Of a stretch of 64,000 bases of DNA, positions 4,517 through 50,718 are shown piece by piece. Every line of letters starts with the position of its first letter. The stretch's first letter is position 1. The translations under genes and the position numbers were made by a program. The stretch spans positions 3,362 through 67,361 of the forward strand of contig CAZSTG010000002.1 in assembly GCA_964609895.1 (NCBI GenBank). Reading direction: 5' to 3'. The DNA comes from an uncultured Gammaproteobacteria bacterium. Its GTDB lineage: Bacteria > Patescibacteriota > Microgenomatia > UBA10105 > UBA927. Under the pieces are notes generated by a model. The model did not search any database. It was not told where the DNA came from and saw only the letters and a program-made list of their open reading frames with translations.

Positions 4517-5959
4517 TTAGTTCGCAGGCTGCCAGGAAATACCGGCTGAGAGACGATCTTCGCCATGATAGGTAAACGTTCCTGCCGGTACATTGAAGTA
4601 CTGGCATGATCCGTCAGGGCTGGATAATGTGGCTTCGCCGGTGACGTTTCCGTTACAGAATAAAACTGTTCCAGGTTTCGTCGTGGTGAAGATGATGTTC
4701 TTCAAGGTTCCAAAATCTTGCATCATGGAAACCATTGAGGGTACCATCATGATCTCAACACCTTCAGGGCCTGCCCACGTCGCGGTATCTCCGGAGATCT
4801 TCCAATAACCGGTATATTCCACGATTTGTGCTTCAGTCATTCCCGCCCAGCCGCTTGCTGTAAATCTGACTCCGAATCCTGCGATTGGTGAGTTAGCATT
4901 GTCTTGAATAACATGCCACCCAGCATTGATTGCAACACGTTTTCCGCATTCACCAGCCTTTACGCCGAGAATATCGGATAATGGTGTGCCATCAAGCGTT
5001 CCCAAGGCGCATGTTTCCAACTGAGCTTCTTTGCCCAGATAGAAAATGACTTTGGTGATATCACCGTTTCGCATCAGATCCAGAGGGCCGGGGTCGCCGT
5101 TTCCAAAATTGCCGTCAGCTTCCGTGATGTCCTCTGAACCATCAGTTGGTCCGTACCACATCATAATGCCTTTGTCGATTTTGGACGTGTCCCAGCAAAG
5201 CCCTGCGCAAATCTCCGGGAAACCGTCTTCACCAGCCGAATACATTTCCGGTTGATCGGGAAGCGGTTCACCCCAAATTTCTTCTGCAAGTGCTTTGTTG
5301 TCGTCACTGGAAGCTACAGGAGTAGCTTCTGGTGTTTCGGCAACATCAGGTGCTTCGGTTGCATCAGGTGCTTCGGTTGCATCGGGTGCTTCGGTTGCAT
5401 CAGGTGCTTCGGTTGCATCGGGTGCTTCGGTTGCATCTGGTGCTTCAGTCACTTCGGCAGCAGGCGCTTCCGTTGCTTTGCCTTCTGGGGTTGTTGCATC
5501 GCGGCCGGACCAGCGGATGATGATGGCTCCGATGACAGCGATTACAAGGAAGAACAAAATCCAGTTACGCAGTTTACGGTGTTCAGCCCAGAATGCTTTC
5601 CAACGTTGACCGAATGTTGGTTTTTCAACCTCTTCCTGCTCTTCGTCGTCAGGATCAGTGTGAGCAGGTACAGGGGGAACGGGTGCTGGAATGGGAGCAG
5701 CATCAACGGTCAGGACGAATTCCTTTTCCGCCAAAACCTTGTTGGTTTTATCAAGGATTTGGTAGATAATCGGGAAATCTCCGGCTGTTTCGGGTGTGCC
5801 GACCAAGACAGTGCCTTCGAACAGTCTCATGCCTTTAGGCAGAACACCGATCACGTTGAACACGGCGCCAGCTGGAAGACCAGCAATATCAAATTCCTGC
5901 TGATATTCCTCTCCAATCTTGCCTTTTGGCAAGGTCGTGCTATTGATAACAGTAGCCAT
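4517..5959 (-). CDS. Single-pass membrane protein with N-terminal putative Ig-like domain, (PDATEA)x7 tandem repeat linker and ~290-aa C-terminal domain of unknown function
   Basis: Start chosen at MATVINS (ATG at 5959) with a GGAGGA RBS. A TM segment (WILFFLVIAVIGAIIIRW) and seven copies of EAPDAT from an 18-nt DNA tandem repeat are present. Confidence 0.65.
   Translation of the reverse strand: MATVINSTTLPKGKIGEEYQQEFDIAGLPAGAVFNVIGVLPKGMRLFEGTVLVGTPETAGDFPIIYQILDKTNKVLAEKEFVLTVDAAPIPAPVPPVPAHTDPDDEEQEEVEKPTFGQRWKAFWAEHRKLRNWILFFLVIAVIGAIIIRWSGRDATTPEGKATEAPAAEVTEAPDATEAPDATEAPDATEAPDATEAPDATEAPDVAETPEATPVASSDDNKALAEEIWGEPLPDQPEMYSAGEDGFPEICAGLCWDTSKIDKGIMMWYGPTDGSEDITEADGNFGNGDPGPLDLMRNGDITKVIFYLGKEAQLETCALGTLDGTPLSDILGVKAGECGKRVAINAGWHVIQDNANSPIAGFGVRFTASGWAGMTEAQIVEYTGYWKISGDTATWAGPEGVEIMMVPSMVSMMQDFGTLKNIIFTTTKPGTVLFCNGNVTGEATLSSPDGSCQYFNVPAGTFTYHGEDRLSAGISWQPAN
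5348..5473. repeat. 18-nt tandem repeat (ggtgcttcggttgcatca) x ~7 inside CDS
   Basis: Direct reading of the sequence shows near-identical 18-mers in tandem that encode PDATEA repeats on the minus strand. Confidence 0.85.
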
Positions 5960-6417
5960 TGTATCCTCCGATATATGGTTTGTTGCTATGGTATTGTTTT
6001 GTTTTACCCAAAAGTCGTAACAAAACAATGGTTTTTACTTTTACCCTAACGGGACAGTGAGTAAAAACAGATAGTATCGATAGTTGTATTGGGCATCGAT
6101 TTCCCAGACAGCGCCTGACACAGTAGGTATCAAGCGGTTTCTGGGAACGATATTCCAAGAACCATCAAAACCGTATGGTTGGAAGATAACAATTGAATAG
6201 ATATTGTGAATGTGCAATTCGTACTAACTCGGTATGTTCAGCGATAAACGCGATTGCTTATGTTTAAACAGTACCTCGTTCGTACGACCCGACCTTTTTT
6301 ACGGGTCAGGAACAGATAGTGAAGTCCTCACTACCTGCTTCTGACCATCACCCTACGGGTGTCGTCACCCGTACACTGTTTTTTGATGATTCAAAACAGT
6401 TACGAATTGACAAAAAA

Positions 6418-8030: not shown

Positions 8031-8085
8031 GGAGAGGGTCTGACCCTCGCGCGAAGCTAATTTTTCGAGGGTCAGACCCTCTCCA
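8031..8085. repeat. REP doublet (BIME-like): GGAGAGGGTCTGACCCTC - spacer gcgcgaagctaattttt - GAGGGTCAGACCCTCTCC
   Basis: Two inverted copies of the 15-nt palindrome GAGGGTC(A/T)GACCCTC are present. The same element recurs about 10 times in the window. Confidence 0.85.
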
Positions 8086-9218: not shown

Positions 9219-9273
9219 GGGAGAGGGTCAGACCCTCTCTTTTTTGAAGCTACGCGAGGGTCAGACCCTCTCC
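9219..9273. repeat. REP doublet (spacer tcttttttgaagctacgcga)
   Basis: Same palindrome pair as at 8031 but with the type-B spacer. Confidence 0.85.
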
Positions 9274-9319: not shown

Positions 9320-10606
9320 ATGACAAACCTCGCATATGAAAAAACAGTGTTTCCCAACGGTGTACGACTCCTCTGTATTCCCATTTTGGGCGTTGAGAGC
9401 ATGGCAACATCGGTCATGGTAGGTGTGGGAAGCAGGTACGAAACAAAAGATATCAATGGTATTTCTCATTTTCTTGAACATATGGTGTTTAAAGGGACGC
9501 AAAAATTCCCGACGACTGATGATGTGAATTTCATTGAACGTTTAGGTGGCCTCCAAAACGCCTACACAGACCTCGATGTGACGTGCTACCACAATAAAGT
9601 ATTAGGTGAGGATTGGAAATCGGGGCTCGAGATAAACAAAGAACTTGCCTTGTATCCACGACTTGAAGAGCAATATGTGGACAAGGAACGAAACGTGATT
9701 TTAGAGGAAATGAAAAAGTATGAGGATGAACCGGCGATGAAAGTCGGAGAGCTCTTTCATACGATGCTCTATCCTGATACGCAACTTGGCATGCGAATTA
9801 TTGGAGAAGAGGCACCACTTCGGGCTGCCACCGCACAAACACTCAAAACATATCATGATGCATGGTACCAGCCGGAACGCATGGTGGTTGTGATGGCGGG
9901 GAAGTTGCCGGACGAATTGAAAACGGCGTGTAAGGAGGCTGTTGCTTCATGGTTTGGGGAAATCCCAGCAAAAAAGACAGGAGACATTGAACGGGTTGTT
10001 GATCATCAAAATGCACCTCGTGTGGCATTTGTTACAAAAAAAGATGCAACACAGGCTCATATTACCTTAGGACTTCGTACATTTAATAGGTATGCAGAGG
10101 ATCGGTTTGCCGCAAATGTCTTTAATTTACTGTTTGGTGTGTCGTTTACATCACGACTGTTCAAAGAAATTAGAGAGAAAAAAGGATTGTGTTACACCAT
10201 CCGTTCTTCGTCTGACACGTTTGAAGATGTTGGGTATTGGTCGATTTATGCAGGGGTTGCAACAGACAAAGTGCAAGAAGCAACTGCGGGAATTATGCAA
10301 GAAATTAAGAAGGTGTATACAGAGGGTGTGACAGATGAGGAAGTAAAGATCGCGATCAAACGCCTCAAAACGATGCTTGCGTTTCGTGCAGAGGATCCGG
10401 AGTTTGCAACAGAATGGTACGGTCGGCAGGAACTCTATCACATGCCAATCATGTCACTTACCGACTATATGGAACGCATTGCCAACGTGACAAAAGAAGA
10501 AATTAATGCGATGGTTAAAAAATATTTTGTTGCAACTAATTTGAACTTGGCAGTTGTGTGGAATAGACCGGAAGATACAAGTTTGGTAGAATTATTAAAA
10601 ATTTAA
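9320..10606 (+). CDS. M16-family zinc metallopeptidase (insulinase-like)
   Basis: The HFLEHMVFKGT inverted zinc-binding motif (HxxEH) is present and the length fits an M16B peptidase. Start chosen at MTNLAYE downstream of the REP. Confidence 0.85.
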   Translation: MTNLAYEKTVFPNGVRLLCIPILGVESMATSVMVGVGSRYETKDINGISHFLEHMVFKGTQKFPTTDDVNFIERLGGLQNAYTDLDVTCYHNKVLGEDWKSGLEINKELALYPRLEEQYVDKERNVILEEMKKYEDEPAMKVGELFHTMLYPDTQLGMRIIGEEAPLRAATAQTLKTYHDAWYQPERMVVVMAGKLPDELKTACKEAVASWFGEIPAKKTGDIERVVDHQNAPRVAFVTKKDATQAHITLGLRTFNRYAEDRFAANVFNLLFGVSFTSRLFKEIREKKGLCYTIRSSSDTFEDVGYWSIYAGVATDKVQEATAGIMQEIKKVYTEGVTDEEVKIAIKRLKTMLAFRAEDPEFATEWYGRQELYHMPIMSLTDYMERIANVTKEEINAMVKKYFVATNLNLAVVWNRPEDTSLVELLKI

Positions 10607-21180: not shown

Positions 21181-21234
21181 GGAGAGGGTCTGACCCTCTC
21201 TTTTTTGAAGCTACGCGAGGGTCTGACCCTCTCC
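21181..21234. repeat. REP doublet (type-B spacer)
   Basis: ggagagggtctgaccctctcttttttgaagctacgcgagggtctgaccctctcc. Confidence 0.85.
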
Positions 21235-22882: not shown

Positions 22883-24808
22883 ATGCTGCTTCCTGCCATT
22901 AAAAAACTTTCCAATCGGTTGCGTTTTGATGTTCTCTCGATGACGACTACCGCGGGTAGCGGTCATCCGACTTCATCACTTTCCGCTGTTGAGCTGATGG
23001 CGATGCTGTATTTCAAGTATTTGAGGCTTGATACAGATAATCCGAAAAACCTTTCCAATGACCGTGTTATTTTTTCAAAAGGCCACGCATCGCCGCTTCT
23101 GTATGCACTCTTTCATGTTGCGGGAATTATTTCGGACAAAGAACTTGGCGACTATCGTCAGTTTGGAAGTGTACTAGAAGGACATCCAACGCCACGATTT
23201 CCATTTGCAGATATCGCAACGGGCTCTTTGGGTCAGGGACTTGCGATAGGACTGGGCGAAGCGCTTGCAGGAGCACCGCGCGTGTTTGTGTTGTTAGGTG
23301 ACGGGGAACTGTCAGAAGGCGCCATTTGGGAAGCAGTGATGGCTGCGGGATATCATAAAACACAGAACCTCATTGCACTTGCTGATATTAATGCACTCGA
23401 ACAATCAGGTGGTACGATGGACGCATGGGATACGGAAGCGTATCGCAAACGATTTGAAGCATTTGGATGGGCAGCAATTGTGGTTGATGGCCATGATCTA
23501 AAAATGCTTGATACAGCGTACCAAAAGGCAATTGATTATCGTGGTGGACCAACTATTATTCTTGCCAAAACAAACAAAGGACACGGCATATCGTTTTTAC
23601 AAAATAAACATGGGTGGCATGGGAAAGTGCTTTCCAAGGAACTGCTTGTGAAAGCGCTTGCAGAACTGGGTGATGTCGACACATCATTTGAAGGGATTAT
23701 CAAAAAACCTGAGAGCACCAAAGAACACGCGATGACAAGACGCGATGATGCATTTGTACGGAAGAACACAGTATATGAAAAACCGACAACAACGCGTGAG
23801 GGGTTTGGAAAAGCGCTCGTGCGACTTGGTACGCGGGACACCCACATGATGGTGTTGGATGGAGATTTGGAGAAGTCTACGTACACACAGTTGTTTCATG
23901 AAGCATTTCCGAAACAGTTTTTCGAGTGTCATATTGCAGAACAACTTATGGTTGGTATTGCTGCAGGTATGGCTATTTGTGGGAAGTATCCTGTCATTTC
24001 TTCCTATGGGAGTTTTCTCACACGTGCCTTTGATCAACTCAGAATGGCAGCACTCTCTGGCATGTCCCTGATGGTCAATGGATCGCATGGAGGCGTGTCC
24101 GTTGGTCCAGATGGCGCGTCACAAATGGGACTTGAGGATATTGCGTTGTTTCGAACACTGCCAAACTCTATCGTTTTAAGTCCTGCAGATGCGGTATCAG
24201 CCGAAAAACTGACCGAATGTATTTATGGGTATGACGGCATTGCCTATATCAGAACAACCCGTCCGAATCTGCCGATACTATATGACGGGAAAACGGAATT
24301 TGCAATCGGCGGCAGTCACGTGTTTACAGAAACAAACATGCACCGTGCTGGAAATAAAACTGGCAGTTCCACCAAGCCCGTCACTTCGCTTCCCACAAAA
24401 TCAAAGCTTAGCTTTGAAAAGATTGTGACGATTATCGCAACGGGTGTGACCGTACATGAAGCACTGAAAGCACAAAAAGAATTAGAAGCCAGCGGCACGC
24501 CAACACGCGTCATTGATTGTTATAGCATCAAACCGATTGATGCGCAAGCAATTCGAAATGCGGCGGCTGTATCCAAACAACTGATTATTGTGGAGGATCA
24601 TTATCCTGAAGGCGGGTTAGGCGAGGCAGTATTTACCGCACTTTCAGGCACAAATTCGGAGAGGGTCAGACCCTCGCAGGGTCAGACCCTCCAGATGAAT
24701 AGTACGCATTTAGCCGTGTATAAACAGCCGATGTCGGGAACTGCGGAAGAACTGCTCCGATATGAAGAGATTGATGCAACGGCAATAATTAGGAATGCGA
24801 TAGTATAA
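22883..24808 (+). CDS. tkt: Transketolase (full length, TPP-, Pyr- and C-terminal domains)
   Basis: SGHPTSSLS...FSKGHASPLLYA...GSLGQGL...VLLGDGELSEGAIWEA is the TPP-binding N-domain. HIAEQLMVGIAAGMA is the Pyr domain and GGLGEAV the C-domain. A REP element lies in frame near the 3' end. Confidence 0.9.
   Translation: MLLPAIKKLSNRLRFDVLSMTTTAGSGHPTSSLSAVELMAMLYFKYLRLDTDNPKNLSNDRVIFSKGHASPLLYALFHVAGIISDKELGDYRQFGSVLEGHPTPRFPFADIATGSLGQGLAIGLGEALAGAPRVFVLLGDGELSEGAIWEAVMAAGYHKTQNLIALADINALEQSGGTMDAWDTEAYRKRFEAFGWAAIVVDGHDLKMLDTAYQKAIDYRGGPTIILAKTNKGHGISFLQNKHGWHGKVLSKELLVKALAELGDVDTSFEGIIKKPESTKEHAMTRRDDAFVRKNTVYEKPTTTREGFGKALVRLGTRDTHMMVLDGDLEKSTYTQLFHEAFPKQFFECHIAEQLMVGIAAGMAICGKYPVISSYGSFLTRAFDQLRMAALSGMSLMVNGSHGGVSVGPDGASQMGLEDIALFRTLPNSIVLSPADAVSAEKLTECIYGYDGIAYIRTTRPNLPILYDGKTEFAIGGSHVFTETNMHRAGNKTGSSTKPVTSLPTKSKLSFEKIVTIIATGVTVHEALKAQKELEASGTPTRVIDCYSIKPIDAQAIRNAAAVSKQLIIVEDHYPEGGLGEAVFTALSGTNSERVRPSQGQTLQMNSTHLAVYKQPMSGTAEELLRYEEIDATAIIRNAIV
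24658..24692. repeat. Truncated REP pair inserted in frame within transketolase C-terminal domain
   Basis: ggagagggtcagaccctcgcagggtcagaccctcc is translated as SERVRPSQGQTLQ in the tkt frame. Confidence 0.8.
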
Positions 24809-40321: not shown

Positions 40322-40816
40322 TTACGGTATGAGCGTGAGGGAGTTTATCATGGCGTTAAACCCCATACCAATGCCCGAAATAAGGATATCCATACCCGTT
40401 TTCGGATGAGTGAGCAGGAAAACATCAATCGGTCTACCATCTTTGGGTGTTGCGGTGTGATACAGGATGCCCGACATACTGCCAATCTGTACTGTTTCTT
40501 TGTTATCTTCGGAAACGGCAATACTGGGAATATCTTTTTGACAGGCAAGGACAATCGTATCAGTGTCGGATGTAAACGTTGCGCTTCGTGTTGCTTCTTT
40601 CACTTGAAAGGATTCGGGGTAAGAAAGAGAAACACCACAATCAAGGTTGGTGTATGGACGCATGTTCAACAGTTTGGGAGTTGGAGATGCTGTTGGCGTT
40701 ACAGCGGGTGTTGCTGCAGTAGGTTCCTGATTGATTTTTTTCCCGACATTAAATCCGACAAGAAGCGAAGCGATAACTGCGAGGAGCACGACTAGAATAA
40801 AAGTATTTTTATGCAT
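40322..40816 (-). CDS. Hypothetical secreted protein
   Basis: A signal peptide/TM (MHKNTFILVVLLAVIASLLVGFNV) is present. Confidence 0.45.
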   Translation of the reverse strand: MHKNTFILVVLLAVIASLLVGFNVGKKINQEPTAATPAVTPTASPTPKLLNMRPYTNLDCGVSLSYPESFQVKEATRSATFTSDTDTIVLACQKDIPSIAVSEDNKETVQIGSMSGILYHTATPKDGRPIDVFLLTHPKTGMDILISGIGMGFNAMINSLTLIP

Positions 40817-40934
40817 ACGTAATACAGGTTGTTTGTATTATAGCGAATATTTTTTACCCCTGCAGATGCGTTTTTATCAAACAATTTCACGATGGAAAAT
40901 GCGTATTTGAAGCTAGATCAAAGCTAGCATTTCA

Positions 40935-40985
40935 CGAGGGTCTGACCCTCTCTTTTTTGAAGCTACGCGAGGGTCTGACCCTCGC
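40935..40985. repeat. REP doublet (type-B spacer), preceded by degenerate gaagctagatcaaagctagc
   Basis: cgagggtctgaccctctcttttttgaagctacgcgagggtctgaccctcgc. Confidence 0.85.
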
Positions 40986-40993
40986 AAAGGGGA

Positions 40994-41167
40994 TTAGTCT
41001 AAGTGACCGGTTTCCTTATGCTCCGTATGTTTTTTGCAGTGTCTGCAGTATTTATTGAGGTGCAATTTTTCCGGAGTATTAATTTTATTCCGTTTTGTTA
41101 TATAGTTGGTCGCTTTGCACACGGTGCAGACGAGTCCAATGAGTAGCCGTTGATCTTTCTTTGCCAT
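40994..41167 (-). CDS. rpmG: 50S ribosomal protein L33
   Basis: MAKKDQRLLIGLVCTVCKATNYITKRNKINTPEKLHLNKYCRHCKKHTEHKE (57 aa) has the L33 zinc-ribbon pattern. It is absent from the ORF track because it is shorter than 60 aa. Confidence 0.8.
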   Translation of the reverse strand: MAKKDQRLLIGLVCTVCKATNYITKRNKINTPEKLHLNKYCRHCKKHTEHKETGHLD

Positions 41168-41209
41168 AAGAACCGTATTATATCGTATTTGATGATGCGC
41201 GCCAAGGGG

Positions 41210-45362: not shown

Positions 45363-45366
45363 CAAT

Positions 45367-45419
45367 GGAGAGGGTCAGACCCTCTCCTGAAGCTAATTTT
45401 TCAAGGGTCAGACCCTCGC
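45367..45419. repeat. REP doublet (type-A spacer) filling kbl/hydrolase intergenic gap
   Basis: ggagagggtcagaccctctcctgaagctaatttttcaagggtcagaccctcgc. Confidence 0.85.
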
Positions 45420-45424
45420 AGGCT

Positions 45425-46426
45425 ATGAAACGATGGATGATTGTGTCTCTTATTCTGTGCGGCGTGATCGCCAGCGGCTTGGTGGGATGGTTTCTCTTTT
45501 CCAAAGAACGGCCCGTCCTTGTCAGTCCACTCAGTGGTATTCGGGAAAAGCCGCTTGAAAAATATTCCATACCGCGGTTGCGTATGAGACAATTTGTGCC
45601 GTCCACAATTGTGTTGGGTGAGCCGATAGCGACAGCGAGCGCATATACCGTGCACCCGTTTTCGTTTGTCAGTGATGGAAAAAAAGTGACGGGAATTGCC
45701 CATATACCAACGTCAACAAATCCTGAAAGAAAATTTCCTGTGATTGTACAATTGCGCGGGTATGTAGGTCGGGAAATATATACGGCGGGGATGGGAACAA
45801 CGCATAGCGCGGAAGTATATGCATCAAACGGGTATATTTCTCTGGCGCCTGATTTTTTAGGATATGGTGAATCTGATATGCCATCAACAAGCCCTATTGA
45901 AGAACGATTGGAAACGTATACGACCGCGTTAACACTTCTTGCATCTGTTCCGACCTTGCCATATGCCGATTTGACCCATATTGGATTGTGGGGACACAGT
46001 AACGGCGGACAGATAGCACTCACACTGCTTACGATTCTTGGTGATCGTGCAGTGCCAACGGTGGTATGGGCACCGGTGACGAAACCGTTTCCATATAATA
46101 TTTTGTACTATACAGATGAATTTGATGATCGGGGAAAGGCACTCAGGAAAGTGGTTGCGGATTTTGAGGCGGAGTATGACGCGGATGTGTATTCCATGAC
46201 ACAATATCTTGACGGGATTGCCGTCCCCATACAGCTTTCTCAGGGGACACGCGATGATGCGGTTCCTGTCGCGTGGAGCGATACGTTTGTAAAAACACTG
46301 GAAGAGAAGGAAAAAGACATTACGTATTTCACATACTCCGGCGCGGATCACAATTTAGCGGGGGGTGATGCATGGAATACGGCGATGACGCGCGATATGC
46401 AATTTTTCAAGAATGCATGGAAGTAG
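45425..46426 (+). CDS. Membrane-anchored alpha/beta-hydrolase (S9/dienelactone-hydrolase-like)
   Basis: An N-terminal TM and the IGLWGHSNGGQIAL nucleophile elbow (GxSxG) are present. Start trimmed to MKRWM downstream of the REP. Confidence 0.7.
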   Translation: MKRWMIVSLILCGVIASGLVGWFLFSKERPVLVSPLSGIREKPLEKYSIPRLRMRQFVPSTIVLGEPIATASAYTVHPFSFVSDGKKVTGIAHIPTSTNPERKFPVIVQLRGYVGREIYTAGMGTTHSAEVYASNGYISLAPDFLGYGESDMPSTSPIEERLETYTTALTLLASVPTLPYADLTHIGLWGHSNGGQIALTLLTILGDRAVPTVVWAPVTKPFPYNILYYTDEFDDRGKALRKVVADFEAEYDADVYSMTQYLDGIAVPIQLSQGTRDDAVPVAWSDTFVKTLEEKEKDITYFTYSGADHNLAGGDAWNTAMTRDMQFFKNAWK

Positions 46427-46435
46427 CCGTAAGGA

Positions 46436-46486
46436 AAGGGTCTGACCCTCTCCTTTTTGAAGCTACGCGAGGGTCAGACCCTCTCC
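46436..46486. repeat. REP doublet (type-B spacer)
   Basis: aagggtctgaccctctcctttttgaagctacgcgagggtcagaccctctcc. Confidence 0.85.
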
Positions 46487-46494
46487 AACAAAAA

Positions 46495-46521
46495 ACACGG
46501 AGGCGTGCCCCGTGTTTTTTT
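46495..46521. terminator. Bidirectional rho-independent terminator (ACACGG-aggcgtgcc-CCGTGT + T6)
   Basis: A hairpin with flanking A-run and T-run sits between convergent genes. Confidence 0.65.
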
Positions 46522-46542
46522 AGTTTTATATTTTTATTTCGT

Positions 46543-47049
46543 TTACGGTAGGGTCATCGTGCCGGCTGTACAGGACGCTGATGCTCCCTGATCGTCCGTC
46601 ACCATCGTTTTCATGGTGACTGCCGCGCCTTTGATGAGTTCTACTGCCTTGGTGGTGCATTGATATGTCTGTCCGCCGCGTTCGTCAGCCGGTTTTAATA
46701 CGGCATTTGTCTCTGATGTTGCAAGTATTTTTCCGTCCGCATTTGCTGTGACCGTAAATGTACAGGTGATGCTTTTGGTTGTCAGCAGTGCAGAGCCTTC
46801 TGCAGATAAGTAGTATTTTGGAAATCCGATCATCGGATTGTACCATTGCTTATCGCAGGAGAGCTTGGTAATCATGGTTTTTTCTTCTACGACCGGTGGG
46901 GTTGTACTGGTTGTTTCCGCAGGTGCAGCTTTTGGTTTTGGCCACAAAAGTACTCCCGCAACGATAACGGCAACTACGATGATAGCGCCGATGATATATA
47001 CGCTTGAGGTTTCACCCTCTTGATGTGTGTTCTGGGTTTCGTTTTCCAT
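46543..47049 (-). CDS. Hypothetical membrane-anchored protein
   Basis: N-terminal TM (VYIIGAIIVVAVIVAGVLLW). Confidence 0.45.
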   Translation of the reverse strand: MENETQNTHQEGETSSVYIIGAIIVVAVIVAGVLLWPKPKAAPAETTSTTPPVVEEKTMITKLSCDKQWYNPMIGFPKYYLSAEGSALLTTKSITCTFTVTANADGKILATSETNAVLKPADERGGQTYQCTTKAVELIKGAAVTMKTMVTDDQGASASCTAGTMTLP

Positions 47050-47106
47050 ATGTAGATACTATATATATAAATGAAGTTATTTTGCAAGAGGCGAGAGGAT
47101 TTGTTG

Positions 47107-47178
47107 AGCCGAGACGGGGATTCGGACCCCGGACCTACTGTTTACAAAACAGTTGCTCTACCACTGAGCTATCTCGGC
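47107..47178 (-). tRNA. tRNA-Thr (anticodon TGT)
   Basis: The reverse complement reads GCCGAGATAGCTCAGTGGTAGAGCA ACTGT-TTTGTAA-ACAGT ...GGGGTCCGAATCCCC. Confidence 0.8.
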
Positions 47179-47209
47179 AAGCAGTGTTGGTGTTTGATAC
47201 GCTCATGAG

Positions 47210-47294
47210 TGTCAGGACCAGGATTCGAACCTGGGTAGCCCGTTAAGGCGACAGTTTTACAGACTGTTGCGATTGTCCACTCTGCCATCCTGAC
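47210..47294 (-). tRNA. tRNA-Tyr (anticodon GTA), long variable arm
   Basis: The reverse complement has acceptor GTCAGGA/TCCTGAC, anticodon stem-loop ACAGT-CTGTAAA-ACTGT, a long variable arm and T-arm CCAGGTTCGAATCCTGG. Confidence 0.75.
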
Positions 47295-47501
47295 AATATG
47301 TGACAGTTGTCATTATATCGTAAACAAACGCTGCTTTCCATGACGTTTTTATGTGTGTAAATAAACTTGACAACGGGATTGATTTATTTTACGCTTACTA
47401 GTGCTCGGAAGGGATTTTTGTAAAGTTATTTTTTCTCTACAAATTTCTCATCAATGAGGTTCGCATCTGTTAATTTTTATCAGATGCTACAGGACCACAG
47501 T

Positions 47502-47526
47502 ATTGTGTACCCGAGGGTACACAATC
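47502..47526. promoter_or_regulatory. Perfect inverted repeat ATTGTGTACCC-gag-GGGTACACAAT upstream of arsR (candidate operator)
   Basis: An 11-bp perfect palindrome arm sits roughly 105 bp upstream of the ArsR start. Confidence 0.35.
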
Positions 47527-47631
47527 AGTCCTACCAATTAGTTCTAGACGGGAAAAACCTTTACAAACCCTTCGAGCGGAATTATTTTCTTCTCTTTCTT
47601 TCTGTTGTCGTTTTCGTGATACGATAGAGCT

Positions 47632-47955
47632 ATGCTTACCGGCGTGAGACTCAAGGAAAAATCGAGAATGTTTGAAAAAAAGATGCGGGGGCCTGCACAT
47701 ACGATCAGGCTTTCCATTATCTATCTTCTGGCACACGGCGAGCTGTCGCTGCATGAAATCGTTTTGGATATTGATAAACCGCAGAATCTTGTGTCGCATC
47801 ATATGAAAATTTTGGAAAAAAGCGGATGGGTGACAAAACGATCAGAAGGCAGGGAGGTCTATTATCATCTGATTGACCGAGGTTTTTTTGAACTGCACCG
47901 GATGCTTGTTGATACGCCGTTTTATCACACGAAACTGATGAAACGGTTGAAATAG
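47632..47955 (+). CDS. ArsR/SmtB-family transcriptional regulator
   Basis: IRLSIIYLLAHGELSLHEIVLDIDKPQNLVSHHMKILEKSGWV is the wHTH ArsR signature. Confidence 0.7.
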   Translation: MLTGVRLKEKSRMFEKKMRGPAHTIRLSIIYLLAHGELSLHEIVLDIDKPQNLVSHHMKILEKSGWVTKRSEGREVYYHLIDRGFFELHRMLVDTPFYHTKLMKRLK

Positions 47956-47958
47956 CAT

Positions 47959-47979
47959 GGAGAGGGTCAGACCCTCTCC
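47959..47979. repeat. Single REP palindrome GGAGAGGGTCAGACCCTCTCC between arsR stop and RAYT stop
   Basis: A 21-nt near-perfect palindrome. Confidence 0.85.
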
Positions 47980-48645
47980 TTATTCTTCATTGTCGAGAAG
48001 ATACGCGTCCATCGTCCATTCGACTTTTTTCTGTGCTTCGTCGGTGTCTTCGACAAATGATTTGTAAGACGTAAATGTTTGTTGTGATGGGATATTGGAA
48101 CTAAATGATGAAAGAATAATATGCGGATTGACCCATGAAATATTTTTGAGTCCTAGATATTGTGCATAAGATGAATGTGCTGTTACTAAATCAACACCGA
48201 GTTTTATGGGATTTCTATGAATGTATCGTGATATATGGAGGAAATATGCATCATCATCAATCAAAATTGCTTTGTAAACGCTTTCAAATAGTGCGCCGAT
48301 ACGTCGGTATTTTTTATTGAAATACATGGAATATCTTGTGCACACAGATTTGAGAAATGTATGCAGGGAATGTTCATCTTGCTGTTGTATCAGGAAATGA
48401 AAGTGATTGGGCATGAGGCAATAGGCCAGCATGGTGATGGTATCGGAAAAATTTTGGACAGGATCTTTTATGTGTGGACCAATCATTGCCGTCGGGATTT
48501 CTTTTTTCAGCGCCTCTTTAAGTATGTTGAGAAACCGCAGGTAATCTGATTCCTCGAGGAAAATATTCCGTTTCTCCACACCGCGATTGTAGACGTGGTA
48601 TATCCCGTCTAATACAAAAAGTCTTTTTGTATTTTTTCTGGGCAT
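47980..48645 (-). CDS. REP-associated tyrosine transposase (RAYT; IS200/IS605-like Y1 HUH transposase)
   Basis: The N-terminal GIYHVYNRGVEKRNIF, the HUH motif (MPNHFHFLIQ) and the C-terminal catalytic-Tyr motif SRYIHRNPIKLGV (YxxxNP) are present. The gene is flanked on both sides by the inverted REP palindromes. Confidence 0.8.
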   Translation of the reverse strand: MPRKNTKRLFVLDGIYHVYNRGVEKRNIFLEESDYLRFLNILKEALKKEIPTAMIGPHIKDPVQNFSDTITMLAYCLMPNHFHFLIQQQDEHSLHTFLKSVCTRYSMYFNKKYRRIGALFESVYKAILIDDDAYFLHISRYIHRNPIKLGVDLVTAHSSYAQYLGLKNISWVNPHIILSSFSSNIPSQQTFTSYKSFVEDTDEAQKKVEWTMDAYLLDNEE

Positions 48646-48672
48646 TATGTTCACTATATCACAGAATAGATT

Positions 48673-48726
48673 GGAGAGGGTCAGACCCTCTCTTGAAGCT
48701 AATTTTGCGAGGGTCAGACCCTCTCT
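48673..48726. repeat. REP doublet (type-A spacer) upstream of RAYT
   Basis: ggagagggtcagaccctctcttgaagctaattttgcgagggtcagaccctctct. Confidence 0.85.
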
Positions 48727-48875
48727 GGGGAGAATTGCTACTTGACGAAGTTTTATATTTTCTTTCATACTATATAGGTTCGTATGTATTCTGCCCGAAG
48801 ACAGTGCTATGAACTTTAATTATTTCAATAGTGCATATACGGCAACCACAGTTGCCGGATATTCTTTTCTTTTTT

Positions 48876-48900
48876 AAAGACCCGTACGGGTCTTTTTTTG
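48876..48900. terminator. Bidirectional terminator (aaAGACCCGtacGGGTCTttttttt)
   Basis: A hairpin with flanking A- and T-runs. Confidence 0.6.
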
Positions 48901-48913
48901 AGGAAGTATATTA

Positions 48914-48966
48914 GGAGAGGGTCAGACCCTCGCCTAGCTTCAAAAAAGAGAGGGTCAGACCCTCGC
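48914..48966. repeat. REP doublet, inverted orientation (spacer gcctagcttcaaaaaagaga)
   Basis: ggagagggtcagaccctcgcctagcttcaaaaaagagagggtcagaccctcgc. Confidence 0.85.
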
Positions 48967-49017
48967 TAAGAGGAAATTTGAGGCATATTGAAGAAAATAG
49001 CACTATAGGGTACAATT

Positions 49018-50718
49018 ATGAATATGGCAGAACGAGGATCGACATCAGAACCAATTCAGACTGGCAGTTATCGTCCTGATGGATATAAGCCAGCAACATT
49101 ATCACATAAATTAAAAAATGCGTTAGGTGTGCTGATTATCGGTGGAGGGCTCGCAACCGGTTGTGCTCCAAAAGAGGGTTTCCATCCTACACAGATGCCG
49201 ACTATGGGTGGTGAGACACCCGCTGCAACCTTGGTTGATCCGACACTTGCTCCGACAGAATATATCCTTCCTCCAGCGGCCGCAACAGAAACGTCTGTTG
49301 TGAGCACACCGACACTTCCGATAGAAACGCAGCCCGCACAGGTTCCTTTGGCACTCCCCGGAGTAGAATTTGGTGCCGGCGGACCCGACCTTGTACAAAA
49401 TCCGTTGACCACGGCGTTGCAAAAAGCCGTCAATACTGTGGGATTTGGTGTTGTTTACAGCGGTGAAAACAATGTGAGTGCGGAAACAGGACAAGTATGT
49501 TTTAGTGTTGTTCCGGAAAAACTGGTGAGCGACACCAATGTAAACGGAGAACAGCTTCTGAAAGATGCCACTTCGAAAACTGGTATTGCCGAATACGACG
49601 ATACGCAGGTACTTGGTGAGGTTTCCATTCCCAAAGACACGGAAACAGAAACATTTGCCTGTGTCCTTGGCTATGCGCTTCCTGAAAATACGATGTACCA
49701 AGACGGAACGCTTCGTCAGTTATTGGTACAAACGAACATTGCAGACGGATCCGTCGAAGTAATTGCTTCCATGCAAGCGGGGTTTTCCATGAATGATATT
49801 GTGGAAGTAAAAAATGGTGTTGTTTATGTGAACGGGGAGGTGCAGAACTGGACAGCATTTGAAGGTCAGCAACTTCCTGTGGAAAAAGATTATCGCGCGG
49901 ATTATGAAAAGGTGCAGGCTGATCCGTGGACGGCAACCGAAGCAGAGAAAGCAGGATATGACACGTATGTCCGTCAACAGCTTGCGGCAGCAGGTATCAA
50001 AGACGCCGAAACCTTGTCTGACTATGATCTTTTGGAAGCAGTGATTGAATATCAGCAGGCACTGATTGCTAAAGGTGGGTTGGAAAATCCTGCAGATTAT
50101 TTAGTTGAATTGCCGATTTCCCTTCATGAACTGATCCGGACGGATATGGATAATGTTGTTGCTGTACACCGTGAGCCAAGTCGGGATAATGCAAAATATG
50201 GCATCGGCGGAACTGTTAACCCAAGTCGAGAAGATTTACTTAATGAAATTACGAACATATTTCCGGATTTTTCCATATATGGAACAGTGATGCAGGCGAG
50301 CGCTCATGAGTATCAGATAAATGGTGATTTGATTCTATTATATAGAACTCCTGGTATGGATCCGAGTGTCGGCATTGGTGCGGTTTTAAAAATGTATGAT
50401 GGTGATAAGGTTGCGTATGCGGAGGCGTTAATTTCAACTTCAACTGCACCCATTAATTCAGGAGATTTGTGCATGGGAAATCAAGTAGGAGAGGAAGTTT
50501 TGCCAAAAGCGTGTCCGGTTGGTGCACAAAGAACTCAAGCATATATAAAGGATAAAAGTTGGGAACTTTTTGAATTGTCAGATTTATTAAAAATAATGTC
50601 GGAAAGCGACCATGTGTTACAATTGGAAATGACGAGCGATGGCTCACATAAAGCGGGTGCTCCAATGTGGTCGGATGGAATAAAGATAGCTACTGACATA
50701 ACTATATTAAATAATTAA
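49018..50718 (+). CDS. Large hypothetical lipoprotein/secreted protein
   Basis: A lipobox-like LIIGGGLATGCAP follows the N-terminal region. The ORF is 566 aa with no motif recognised. Confidence 0.5.
   Translation: MNMAERGSTSEPIQTGSYRPDGYKPATLSHKLKNALGVLIIGGGLATGCAPKEGFHPTQMPTMGGETPAATLVDPTLAPTEYILPPAAATETSVVSTPTLPIETQPAQVPLALPGVEFGAGGPDLVQNPLTTALQKAVNTVGFGVVYSGENNVSAETGQVCFSVVPEKLVSDTNVNGEQLLKDATSKTGIAEYDDTQVLGEVSIPKDTETETFACVLGYALPENTMYQDGTLRQLLVQTNIADGSVEVIASMQAGFSMNDIVEVKNGVVYVNGEVQNWTAFEGQQLPVEKDYRADYEKVQADPWTATEAEKAGYDTYVRQQLAAAGIKDAETLSDYDLLEAVIEYQQALIAKGGLENPADYLVELPISLHELIRTDMDNVVAVHREPSRDNAKYGIGGTVNPSREDLLNEITNIFPDFSIYGTVMQASAHEYQINGDLILLYRTPGMDPSVGIGAVLKMYDGDKVAYAEALISTSTAPINSGDLCMGNQVGEEVLPKACPVGAQRTQAYIKDKSWELFELSDLLKIMSESDHVLQLEMTSDGSHKAGAPMWSDGIKIATDITILNN

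Follow-up and report, generated by a model that had tools for sequence, protein, structure and literature searches.

The 64,000-nt stretch of DNA analysed here (hereafter the window) contained one gene encoding a Y1/HUH transposase-like protein, with perfect palindromes on both sides of it and at other sites in the window. A preliminary description had presented this locus as a canonical REP-RAYT-REP layout in a genome unlike those of the Gammaproteobacteria. The features discussed below were the following.

8031..8084, minus strand: REPIN-like doublet upstream of a sortase gene (−25.5 kcal/mol, z −7.9)
9220..9273, minus strand: REPIN-like doublet between divergent genes (long hairpin, −17.5 kcal/mol)
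21181..21234, minus strand: REPIN-like doublet between a co-directional 23S_rRNA_IVP-like gene and rpiB
24658..24694, no strand: tight REP doublet with a 16-bp period, in frame within the C-terminal domain of a transketolase
40933..40986, minus strand: REPIN-like doublet directly 3' of a small rpmG (L33) gene
45367..45420, minus strand: REPIN-like doublet filling a 62-nt gap between aminotransferase and hydrolase genes
46433..46486, minus strand: REPIN-like doublet between convergent genes (long hairpin, −17 kcal/mol)
47959..47979, no strand: REP singlet GGAGAGGGTCAGACCCTCTCC, a perfect palindrome of 21 nt immediately adjoining the stop codon of the transposase gene, between convergent genes
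47980..48645, minus strand: Y1/HUH transposase-like gene, RAYT-like class 2, assigned to the subclass 2.1/TIRYT type, 221 aa, single copy
48653..48661, minus strand: possible extended −10 element (TGATATAGT) of the transposase gene, between the proximal REP and the ATG, as read from the sequence
48673..48726, minus strand: REPIN-like doublet 27 nt 5' of the transposase ATG; period 33 bp, spacer AAAAT-TAGCTTC as read on the gene strand
48914..48967, plus strand: REPIN-like doublet with the spacer TAGCTTC-AAAAA, about 190 bp beyond the preceding doublet

The transposase reading frame runs on the minus strand from an ATG at 48645 (MPRKNTK...) to a stop codon at 47980–47982. The coordinates given in the preliminary description were all correct, and the motifs it named were all present: YHVYNRG at residues 16–22, NHFHFLI with the HUH pair H81-F-H83, and RYIHRNP with the catalytic tyrosine Y141. 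The proposed Y1 transposase identity was borne out by Pfam PF01797 (Y1_Tnp), which matched residues 69–145 with 37.3 bits (gathering cutoff 23, E 3.4e-9); such a partial match is typical of class 2 proteins (PMC6006769). The distance from the HUH motif to Y141 was 58 residues, compared with a superfamily criterion of about 58–67. Both elements were invariant in an alignment of 31 homologues and aligned with the HUH motif and tyrosine of E. coli RayT, and Q88 and other residues were also invariant in the short forms of the family. An AlphaFold model (pLDDT 85.3, pTM 0.82) had the Y1 transposase fold, with 4er8, 2vhg/2vjv, 2xm3, 2f4f and 2ec2 as its best structure matches, and in structure comparison the model was nearer to RAYT than to IS608 or IS200 TnpA. 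The single protein had no match among PDB sequences, and the family profile gave marginal ISDra2 matches at most. The best homologue among GTDB species representatives was 51% identical.

On one side the gene is convergent with an HTH_5 gene ending at 47955, and on the other it borders a non-coding stretch, so that neither neighbour is tnpB. The element TGATATAGT at 48653..48661 is a possible promoter element for the transposase; a consensus promoter scan that required a −35 box did not list it, and a TTGACA box overlapping or 3' of the upstream palindrome was present at 31 of 80 related loci. The public ORF of the gene begins within a REP doublet, which shows that these repeats mislead gene callers.

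Ribosomal protein L1 and the transposase homologues pointed to a host among the Gottesmanbacteria-like Microgenomates (Patescibacteria), in agreement with the earlier view that it was not a proteobacterium. RAYT-like genes had been recorded before in bacteria other than Proteobacteria (PMC5581495, PMC6006769), which makes the host by itself less of a surprise than that view implied.

Judged from its sequence, the protein belongs with a group that has been given three names, TIRYT/TIRtron (PMC3733652), TnpA-Y1 subclass 2.1 (PMC6006769) and RAYT Group 1 (PMC5581495), and not with the E. coli or Pseudomonas RAYT groups, an assignment drawn from motifs and profile comparison. Class 2 proteins carry the tyrosine signature Y---NP and class 1 (IS200) proteins Y---Q (PMC6006769), and YIHRNP fits the former. 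Subclass 2.1 is described by NH[YF]H, FQ (or W[EQ]), Y[IV]HLNP, a tail with SS and a length of about 238 aa (PMC6006769). The window family shares NHFH, FQ for WQ, YIH[LR]NP and a conserved SS in the C-terminal tail, at about 225 aa compared with the subclass median of 238. With hhalign, a Rhodospirillum rubrum plasmid protein of the subclass 2.1 type (NHIH, WQ, YIELNP, WSSY) aligned over 173 columns covering core and tail (99.6%, E 1.9e-24), and E. coli RayT over 73 columns with E 0.018. When the RAYT label of the preliminary description was checked against the E. coli-type equivalog model NCBIfam NF047646, the window protein scored 47.7 bits, below the cutoff of 80, whereas E. coli RayT scored 179 bits. 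The same model matched all 31 family members, with a best E-value of 7e-13 vs. 4.6e-53 for E. coli RayT.

The repeat unit was a perfect 21-nt palindrome, GGAGAGGGTC[A/T]GACCCTCTCC. Its core, GAGGGTCWGACCCTC, gave 38 strand-matches (19 sites) in the window, compared with 0.05 in dinucleotide shuffles, and 16-mers of the palindrome were the commonest in the window at 10–11 copies each. The 19 palindrome copies lay at 10 locations, about 0.3 per kb, and comprised nine doublets and one singlet. Eight of the nine doublets had an identical 33-bp period and TAGCTTC spacer, the common form being 54 bp long with a spacer of TAGCTTC plus an A-run. Nine of the 10 locations were intergenic (coding sequence makes up about 87% of the window), and nearly half of the copies (9 of 19) fell within 3.6 kb around the transposase gene. 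The palindromes that bracket the gene are the same ones that are dispersed through the intergenic DNA of the window. The palindrome that the preliminary description had placed next to the stop codon (47959–47979), its doublet 27 nt from the ATG and its further doublet about 190 bp on were all recovered. It had also called the upstream doublet inverted. The outer ends of the doublets are indeed mirror images (GGAGA...TCTCC), but because each unit is itself a perfect palindrome the term is ambiguous, and all five copies around the gene share the same central base, A on the plus strand.

In folding predictions the doublets formed single long hairpins, with minimum free energies between −15 and −25.5 kcal/mol and z between −3.9 and −7.9. 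The GTAG-like tetranucleotide expected 5' of the hairpin failed to appear: GTAG-like, GT[AG]G and CGTC motifs were present at the hairpin foot in none of the 19 copies on either strand. TAGCTTC, within the doublet spacer, was the sole conserved motif adjoining the palindromes. Seven of the eight 33-bp-period doublets share one orientation within a single replichore, and GC skew is positive throughout the window; this is a possible strand bias, a feature shared with IS200/IS605 elements. Rfam had no match at the palindromes or at a conserved non-coding element beside them. Within the window, the repeats correspond to canonical REPs in size (21 nt), copy number (19) and intergenic location (9 of 10 sites), and to REPINs in their mirrored pairing, fixed short spacer, folding into one hairpin and excess of doublets over singlets (nine vs. 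one). The window gene, single-copy and with dispersed REPs immediately on both flanks, also has the arrangement by which a REPtron is recognised.

Comparison with syntenic relatives was used to follow the repeats site by site. The singlet at 47959..47979 folds into a 9-bp stem with a 3-nt loop (−9.5 kcal/mol, z −4.2), and the relative L002 has a tight doublet in its place. The doublet at 48673..48726 forms one long hairpin of −15.9 kcal/mol, and L002 holds a 16-bp-period doublet at that position. The doublet at 48914..48967, the only one of the eight with a 33-bp period to carry its tag on the plus strand, was missing from the orthologous site of L002, where a 70-nt indel has TTCCTC at both borders. 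At 46433..46486, L002 has only one REP, with a difference of 35 nt. The doublet at 40933..40986, which is followed by TAGCTT tags without a REP, was missing at the syntenic sites of L095 and L096. The in-frame doublet of the transketolase encodes residues ~593–603 (...SERVRPSQGQTLQ...); L089 has a single REP there and is 12 nt shorter, and L096 lacks the insert. The doublet at 21181..21234 was identical at the orthologous site of L092, and L096 has an intergenic gap of 21 nt and no doublet. L084 has only the right-hand REP of the doublet at 9220..9273 and has the doublet at 8031..8084 with its first loop base flipped; the long hairpin of the latter is perfect because its central bases are T and A.

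On a wider scale, the transposase gene was syntenic in a relative with a 75% identical protein, with conserved neighbours on both sides and different REPs. A second relative had conserved orthologous REP sites, or a singlet in place of a doublet. L095 and L096, in which L1 is 86–91% identical, had no REPs across 20 kb of synteny. Such sharp differences in REP content between close relatives indicate recent activity. At the same time, many orthologous REP sites were stable between relatives at about 80–88% nucleotide identity, and at these sites the REP sequence was perfectly conserved while the flanks diverged. Whole-doublet presence or absence was seen once (the 70-nt indel) and singlet/doublet differences several times, in neither case with a polarised direction. 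The indel at 48914..48967, with its 6-bp direct repeat TTCCTC, could equally be a slippage deletion in L002. It was the one clean filled/empty pair for the ends of a mobile unit, and is bounded by direct repeats; the other sites were too diverged. The exact 20-nt REP was found in JGI metagenomes on 10 stretches, five of which, on three contigs, came from one related sample (Ga0172375).

The bracketed arrangement recurred beyond the window. One genome-specific perfect hairpin was present on both gene flanks at 44 of 77 homologous loci from Patescibacteria (57%) vs. 11 of 686 control ORFs (1.6%). The bracketed layout claimed in the preliminary description therefore stands and is recurrent, although it is not the GTAG-REP/RAYT arrangement of Gammaproteobacteria. 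Most related loci had few extra hairpin copies (0–5) within 10 kb on either side, so dispersal of the repeats is a feature of this lineage and not of the family. Hairpin type tracked protein similarity weakly (mean identity 0.471 vs. 0.452, permutation p about 0.008), and paralogues within a genome, which were 45–67% identical, had different hairpins (three genomes with two copies each). Across the 77 loci an intact tyrosine motif did not predict shared hairpins (Fisher p 0.5).

Family members were 181–246 aa long, mostly about 205–235, and helix A and strand 2 are separated by an insertion of about 25 aa that is particular to the clade. Among 80 related genes, NHFH was present in 71 and YIH[LRMKQ]NP in most (11 lacked the pattern); LFQ/LFE, YIH[LR]NP and the invariant S158 S159 were also present. 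The family includes SH3-fused, membrane-anchored relatives that have lost the tyrosine motif, with a conserved membrane ORF downstream of them, and two such loci had no flanking palindromes. These forms show clearly that at least one exaptation has taken place in the family.

With its domesticated-looking transposase gene, the window extends a system of a known kind, the TIRYT branch of REP/RAYT, to a host group that is new for it. We consider it probable that the locus is a REPtron-like unit of the TIRYT/TnpA-Y1 subclass 2.1 branch in a Gottesmanbacteria-like genome, in which a single gene, inherited vertically and encoding a nuclease-ligase for single-stranded DNA with intact HUH/Tyr catalytic motifs, is accompanied by its cognate family of non-autonomous repeats. 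The gene could instead belong to an autonomous IS200/IS605-type insertion sequence that transposes together with its flanking hairpins, the dispersed palindromes being solo ends or MITE-like derivatives. Confinement of the hairpins to the two flanks of the gene at most related loci resembles IS ends, full-length homologues were found on plasmids, and Group 1 is the most IS-like RAYT group except for Group 6, with 6.3% duplicates, some of them on plasmids (PMC5581495). We nevertheless regard an insertion sequence as unlikely. The tyrosine motif is Y---NP rather than Y---Q, the modelled structure lies nearer to RAYT than to IS608/IS200 TnpA, and one gene copy accompanies 19 repeats in 64 kb. The gene also keeps its position and neighbours in the relative with the 75% identical protein, within-genome paralogues are 45–67% rather than about 99% identical, tnpB is absent from both sides, and no family member was found on viral contigs.

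A similarly low probability attaches to domestication, in which the protein would bind or process REPs in a host function (e.g., replication-fork, recombination or transcript handling at hairpins), would spread the repeats no longer or never have done so, and some other process would account for their spread or persistence. Its single-copy, syntenic, housekeeping-like gene, the many stable orthologous sites at which REPs are perfectly kept between diverging flanks, the exaptation elsewhere in the family and the terminator-like REP hairpins followed by a T-run are all consistent with this. The invariance of the catalytic HUH, Tyr, Q88 and other residues in the short forms argues against it, as do the sharp differences in REP content among close relatives (none in L095/L096, singlet-doublet changes elsewhere) and the fixed doublet spacing, which suggests that doublets may replicate as a unit. 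Only two of the five T-run doublets are oriented to terminate the upstream gene, and terminator function as a general role was rejected as it fits some copies only. That the palindromes are ordinary host signals, placed beside the transposase by coincidence as intrinsic terminators or as operators of the neighbouring ArsR-type HTH_5 regulator, is close to refuted. A terminator scan did list GC-rich hairpins, some with T-runs after them, and the HTH_5 neighbour is conserved across the window, L001 and L002. Terminators of independent origin, however, would not have the identical 21 nt and the 54-bp doublet design in common at 10 sites. One copy lies in frame within transketolase, and palindromes are present on both flanks of the Y1 gene far more often than on those of control ORFs. 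The operator idea was rejected because an HTH_5 homologue lay within 10 kb at none of the 80 related loci.

For the REPtron-like unit, a mechanism can be modelled by analogy on E. coli TnpA-REP and IS608 TnpA, and by that analogy we infer that the transposase moves the repeats. A hairpin would be extruded in single-stranded DNA, probably on the lagging-strand template, and bound by the transposase. The HUH-bound metal and Tyr141 would then cut beside the hairpin, giving a 5'-phosphotyrosine intermediate, and strand transfer would rejoin the DNA, such that singlets or doublets are excised or copied to new, mostly intergenic sites while the transposase gene itself would stay immobile. The positions of cleavage, and a guide or cleavage-signal function that the TAGCTTC tag may have, are likewise inferred.

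Knowledge of REP/RAYT systems comes almost wholly from Enterobacteria, Pseudomonas and Stenotrophomonas (Groups 2 and 3). Group 1 (subclass 2.1/TIRYT) is the largest and most widespread group, and it has had no demonstrated repeat partner (PMC6006769), or 'moderately abundant TIRs' at most (PMC3733652). The window offers a gene of this type with clear, dense, doublet-structured repeats, turnover between close relatives and some relatives that are repeat-free. It offers a ready-made test of whether hairpins are mobilised by this group and of how a perfect palindrome is recognised without a GTAG guide. On a broader and more tentative reading, which we put below even chances, Patescibacteria (Microgenomates, Saccharibacteria) may contain an extensive clade of subclass-2.1-type Y1 proteins that had not been described before, with about 1,800 clusters at 50% identity (E<=1e-30). 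Its short, catalytically intact members would each be paired with a genome-specific perfect hairpin and, in some lineages including that of the window, would have driven REPIN-like expansion in a very small genome via a non-GTAG tag (TAGCYT), and a sister branch would have been exapted to membrane-anchored Y1-TM-SH3b proteins with loss of the Tyr motif and hairpins. If that is true, palindromic repeats are mobilised by proteins of subclass 2.1, a subclass reported to lack REP association. The repeats are also of practical and genomic relevance: metagenome assemblies of such bacteria are likely to be fragmented by them, and minimal candidate-phyla-radiation genomes tolerate about 0.3 of them per kb, including an in-frame copy in transketolase.

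Among the known systems, IS200/IS605 elements (TnpA, class 1) share with the window the HUH/Y1 fold, subterminal hairpins beside the gene and a presumed single-strand DNA chemistry. The window protein differs in having Y---NP instead of Y---Q and in being longer, with a tail; its gene is without tnpB, single-copy in the 64 kb and syntenic, and its hairpins are identical perfect palindromes on both sides that are also dispersed without the gene. E. coli RayT (TnpA-REP, subclass 2.2/Group 2) has comparable motifs (PEHMH for PNHFH, YIYINPVKHG for YIHRNPIKLG), and the E. coli REPtron and its BIMEs likewise combine a single gene with bracketing, intergenically dispersed palindromes and pairs joined by a short linker. 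Sequence similarity between the two proteins is marginal, however, and the C-terminal tail is longer in the window protein. In E. coli the REP palindromes are imperfect, contain a bulge and require a 5' GTAG, whereas the window stems are perfect and without GTAG.

The Pseudomonas REPIN-RAYT system (Group 3/subclass 2.5) is close in the form of its repeats, which are short perfect palindromes whose fixed-spacer doublets form one long hairpin and far outnumber singlets. It also has a single-copy gene, vertically persisting sites and lineage-specific repeat populations. Its protein is of another subclass (DH[LF]H, WQ, YI[VI]ANP) and its repeats are GTAG-tagged. Pseudomonas REPIN genomes measure 6–7 Mb, in contrast to the very small genomes of Patescibacteria, the host group of the window.

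TIRYTs provide the comparison for the flanks of the gene. The published TIRYT flanking-repeat motif is GGGGWSAS (PMC3733652), and AGGGTCAG, within GAGGGTCAGACCCTC on both sides of the window gene, agrees with it at seven of eight positions. The R. rubrum homologue has inverted flanking copies of GGGGTCAGACCCC, with the same core as in the window, and GGGGTCAG on both flanks. Inverted GGGGWSAS-type copies thus lie at similar distances from the gene in both, as GGGGTCAGACCCC in R. rubrum and (A)GGGTCAGACCC(T) in the window. Di Nocera described TIRs that are self-complementary, dimers, and TIR families of moderate abundance (PMC3733652), and Quentin et al. reported no REP-like sequences beside subclass 2.1 genes (PMC6006769). 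The system described here differs in its host, Patescibacteria being unreported in the three surveys (the terms Patescibacteria and CPR were checked in PMC6006769 alone, with no match). It differs further in that the flanking element is a perfect palindrome expanded to fixed-spacing doublets at about 0.3 per kb, a density in the window that exceeds the roughly 12 occurrences given for Group 1 flanking 16-mers (PMC5581495).

The transposase gene lay where the preliminary description had placed it. On re-reading, the minus-strand CDS at 47980-48645 encoded 221 aa starting MPRKNTK, and the motifs ascribed to its product were all present and catalytically intact: YHVYNRG, NHFHFLI (HUH = H81-F-H83), and RYIHRNP (Y141). 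As predicted, the protein matched Pfam Y1_Tnp above threshold; the NCBIfam RAYT equivalog was matched below its cutoff (47.7 vs. 80 bits). The same model was matched by 31 of 31 aligned homologues (best E-value 7e-13). Invariant residues in the homologue alignment included Y16, H17, Y19, N20, R21, G22, P79, N80, H81, H83, Q88, R140, Y141, I142, H143, N145, S158, S159, and W171. Transcribed toward the transposase gene is an ArsR-type HTH_5 gene (47632-47955, plus strand), the two being convergent; it was kept beside the transposase gene in two related loci (L001 and L002), while none was present within 10 kb of any of 80 more distant family members.

The flanking palindromes were also confirmed. 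A 21-nt perfect palindrome (REP), GGAGAGGGTCAGACCCTCTCC, adjoins the stop codon at 47959-47979, and paired copies (doublets) occupy 48673-48726, ending 27 nt from the ATG, and 48914-48967, ~190 bp beyond. The REP core, GAGGGTCWGACCCTC, gave 38 strand-matches in the window, corresponding to 19 places, compared to 0.05 expected from shuffles, and its 16-mers were the commonest of the window. These copies were dispersed over 10 sites:

REP sites in the window, by core start
8036/8069, doublet with 33-bp period
9225/9258, doublet with 33-bp period
21186/21219, doublet with 33-bp period
24663/24679, tight doublet with 16-bp period
40938/40971, doublet with 33-bp period
45372/45405, doublet with 33-bp period
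46438/46471, doublet with 33-bp period
47964, lone REP (singlet)
48678/48711, doublet with 33-bp period
48919/48952, doublet with 33-bp period

Nine of the ten sites were intergenic, though the window is ~87% coding, and 9 of the 19 copies fell inside 3.6 kb around the transposase gene. The public record of the transposase (P0001, 262 aa; 47980-48768, minus strand) begins 41 codons further upstream, its extra N-terminus including a translated REP doublet (...REGLTLAKLASREGLTLS...). Because every homologue begins MP(A/R)KN, we place the true start at 48645. An ORF at 45365-46426 likewise starts within a REP doublet (MERVRPSPEANFSRVRPSQ...). Directly upstream of doublet 40933-40986 lies rpmG (ribosomal protein L33; ~40990-41170, minus strand), which was too short for the 90-aa ORF list. 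Past this doublet (40790-40935), ~130 nt had no counterpart in the related loci L095 and L096 and carried two TAGCTT tags with no palindrome, which may be repeat remnants.

Oriented by their spacer, five doublets read GGAGAGGGTCWGACCCTCGCG-TAGCTTC-AAAAA-AGAGAGGGTCWGACCCTCTCC and three read ...CCCTCG-AAAAAT-TAGCTTC-R-GAGAGGG..., with outer ends (GGAGA...TCTCC) that mirror each other. As single-stranded DNA, the singlet had a folding energy of −9.5 kcal/mol. The doublets folded into one long hairpin (−15 to −25.5 kcal/mol; z-scores −3.9 to −7.9) and are therefore REPIN-like. A GT[AG]G/CGTC tag was found at none of the 19 copies. The central base on the plus strand was A in 13 copies and T in 6, and it flipped between otherwise identical orthologous copies (T at window 8041, A at 9783 of the related locus L084), a difference that flipping a perfect palindrome would produce. 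Of the eight 33-bp doublets, seven carried TAGCTTC on the minus strand, with window GC skew positive throughout; this bias is suggestive of strand-specific insertion, though not significant on its own.

Between the two doublets upstream of the gene, a non-coding stretch of ~130 nt (48770-48900, plus strand) was 84% identical in L002 (2062-2187). A sequence resembling a promoter (TTGACG...CATACT) lies at 48742-48771, a hairpin (CGGCAACCACAGTTGCCG) lies within the stretch, and its end resembles an intrinsic terminator (GACCCGTACGGGTC then T7). An Rfam search of the stretch returned no family at threshold. Possibly, the stretch encodes a small RNA. Elsewhere, five tandem 18-bp units (GGTGCTTCGGTTGCATCA-like) at 5344-5440 encode a 6-aa repeat inside ORF 4517-6028 (minus strand).

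Pairing of gene and hairpin recurred across 80 family loci taken from GTDB species representatives. Typically, the same hairpin stood 10-70 nt before the gene and within about 30 nt after it, with a sequence that varied from genome to genome (e.g., CAAGGTcgaACCTTG, AGGGCCtGGCCCT, AAAGGATtATCCTTT). Under a strict criterion, which required an identical perfect stem of ≥5 bp on either side, bracketing was seen for 44 of 77 family genes vs. 11 of 686 other ORFs of the same loci; at ≥6 bp the counts were 36/77 and 5/686. An RGG and matching CCY triplet was present in 38 of the 44 shared cores, and a TAGC[CT]T tag was four- to five-fold enriched beside the hairpins on the gene strand. In two-copy genomes, the paralogues shared 45-67% identity and had different hairpins, one for each. 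Few additional copies of the hairpin (0-5) occurred within 10 kb either side of family genes; therefore, the dense dispersal in the window is lineage-specific.

Comparison with relatives showed that the repeat population has changed recently. L002, whose homologue has 75% protein identity, is syntenic over window 46469-49838. It lacks the doublet of 48914-48967 (a 70-nt indel bounded by TTCCTC), has a singlet in place of doublet 46433-46486, has a tight doublet at the 3' end of the gene where the window has the singlet, and has an upstream doublet of 16-bp rather than 33-bp period. In another relative (Ga0172375), at 78-88% nucleotide identity, the orthologues of sites 8031 and 21181 held identical doublets with diverged flanks, and the orthologue of site 9220 held a singlet. 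In L095 and L096 (ribosomal protein L1 91% and 86% identical), no palindrome copy was found in 20.8 kb each, syntenic to window ~19.6-41 kb; repeat expansion is thus restricted to a sub-lineage. Neither locus had a different dispersed repeat family: L096 had no 12-mer at ≥3 copies, and L095 had a few at three copies, none palindromic. The transketolase gene (ORF 22883-24808, plus strand) carries doublet 24658-24694 in frame (...SERVRPSQGQTLQ...), exactly at the end of the Pfam Transketolase_C match (aa 589). It has two REP units in the window, one in the related locus L089 (four codons fewer), and none in L096, while L095 has a short, unrelated insert.

The transposase family is large, with >7,850 homologues collected; a profile search gave 1,808 clusters at 50% identity (E ≤ 1e-30). 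Named hosts were Gottesman-, Woese-, Levy-, Davies-, Curtiss- and Shapirobacteria and Saccharibacteria, and the window's ribosomal protein L1 shared 80% identity with its counterpart in a named Gottesmanbacteria MAG. Many contigs with clear Patescibacteria-family members were titled "uncultured Gammaproteobacteria" in TPA assemblies (L007, L009, L012, L014, and others), and two family-bearing contigs (L025 and L060) were titled Bathyarchaeia and Nanoarchaeia. These titles look unreliable, or else are a sign of transfer into DPANN-like archaea. Among the 149 best-matching family clusters, 57 were Microgenomates proteins of 340-470 aa encoded outside the window (P0130, P0141, P0162, P0197, and others), with a full N-terminal Y1 module, a transmembrane-like segment (55/57), and, at the C-terminus, a bacterial SH3 domain (of 10 proteins tested, 9 matched SH3_3). 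The RYIHxNP Tyr motif was retained in none of them. At two loci examined (L099 4001-5176 and L100 4001-5101), the genes had no flanking palindromes and were followed by a conserved ~208-aa membrane-protein ORF, among sugar-nucleotide genes. With at least 955 members (E ≤ 1e-10), these proteins look like an exapted, membrane-anchored Y1-like domain.

A subclass 2.1 REPtron whose protein mobilizes the repeats is probably the best overall explanation, and mobilization itself we consider somewhat favored. By analogy with E. coli TnpA-REP and IS608 (PMC8266576), the hairpin would fold at the replication fork, where DNA is single-stranded, the transposase would bind it, Tyr141 and the HUH-held metal would cleave beside it, and strand transfer would move or copy singlets and doublets. 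The TAGCTTC spacer may act as guide or cleavage site, the role of GTAG elsewhere.

An autonomous IS is unlikely given the Y---NP motif, the single gene copy in the 64-kb window, its stationary, syntenic position, the divergent paralogues, and the lack of tnpB. It is similarly improbable that the protein is a domesticated factor that no longer spreads the repeats: the stability of REP sites and the exapted relatives fit such a role, but the catalytic residues are invariant and repeat turnover is recent. That the palindromes are unrelated host signals is hardly credible, since the sequence is identical at all sites, one copy lies in frame, the flanking pattern is family-wide, and the HTH_5 neighbor is not conserved.

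In the literature searched, we found no link of REP/RAYT systems to Patescibacteria; one 2026 preprint merely mentions a KEGG K07491 match in a DPANN archaeon. RAYT-like genes outside Proteobacteria, Group 1/subclass 2.1, and TIRYT flanks with this motif are already published. In the scheme of Quentin et al. (PMC6006769), Y---NP defines class 2 (TnpA-REP-like). Its subclass 2.1, equivalent to Bertels Group 1, is recognized by the motifs NH[YF]H, FQ or W[EQ], Y[IV]HLNP or YIELNP, and an SS tail, with a median length of 238 aa; these authors reported no REP-like sequences for it. Di Nocera et al. (PMC3733652) described "TIRYT" genes flanked by a GGGGWSAS motif, the TIRs being sometimes self-complementary, dimeric, and moderately abundant. 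Our family fits the subclass 2.1 definition, with NHFH in 71 of 80 genes, LFQ, YIH[LR]NP, SS, and products of 181-246 aa (mostly about 205-235). The bracketing proposed for this non-proteobacterial host stood, with the subclass 2.1 branch in place of a canonical GTAG-tagged REP.

Full-length homologues with 24-30% identity exist in cultured bacteria. The family profile matched a Rhodospirillum rubrum plasmid protein (NHIH, WQ, YIELNP, WSSY) over core and tail (E 1.9e-24), whereas alignment to E. coli RayT reached only E 0.018, HUH and Tyr nonetheless aligning. A Legionella adelaidensis plasmid homologue is bracketed by inverted AGGGTCAGGCCTTGCCTTTT. The R. rubrum ATCC 11170 "transposase" (WP_011387744.1, plasmid NC_007641.1) is bracketed by TTAAAAGGGGTCAGACCCC and its inverted copy (L097 1446-1464, 2212-2230). 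This repeat is the GGGGWSAS motif of Di Nocera et al., and its GGGTCAGACCC core is common to the window REP despite only ~29% protein identity. From the motifs, profile match, and common flanking motif, the window element is very probably a subclass 2.1 TIRtron/REPtron. This branch, the largest of the RAYTs and the least understood, would thereby gain a clear partner repeat, and would do so in a minimal genome.
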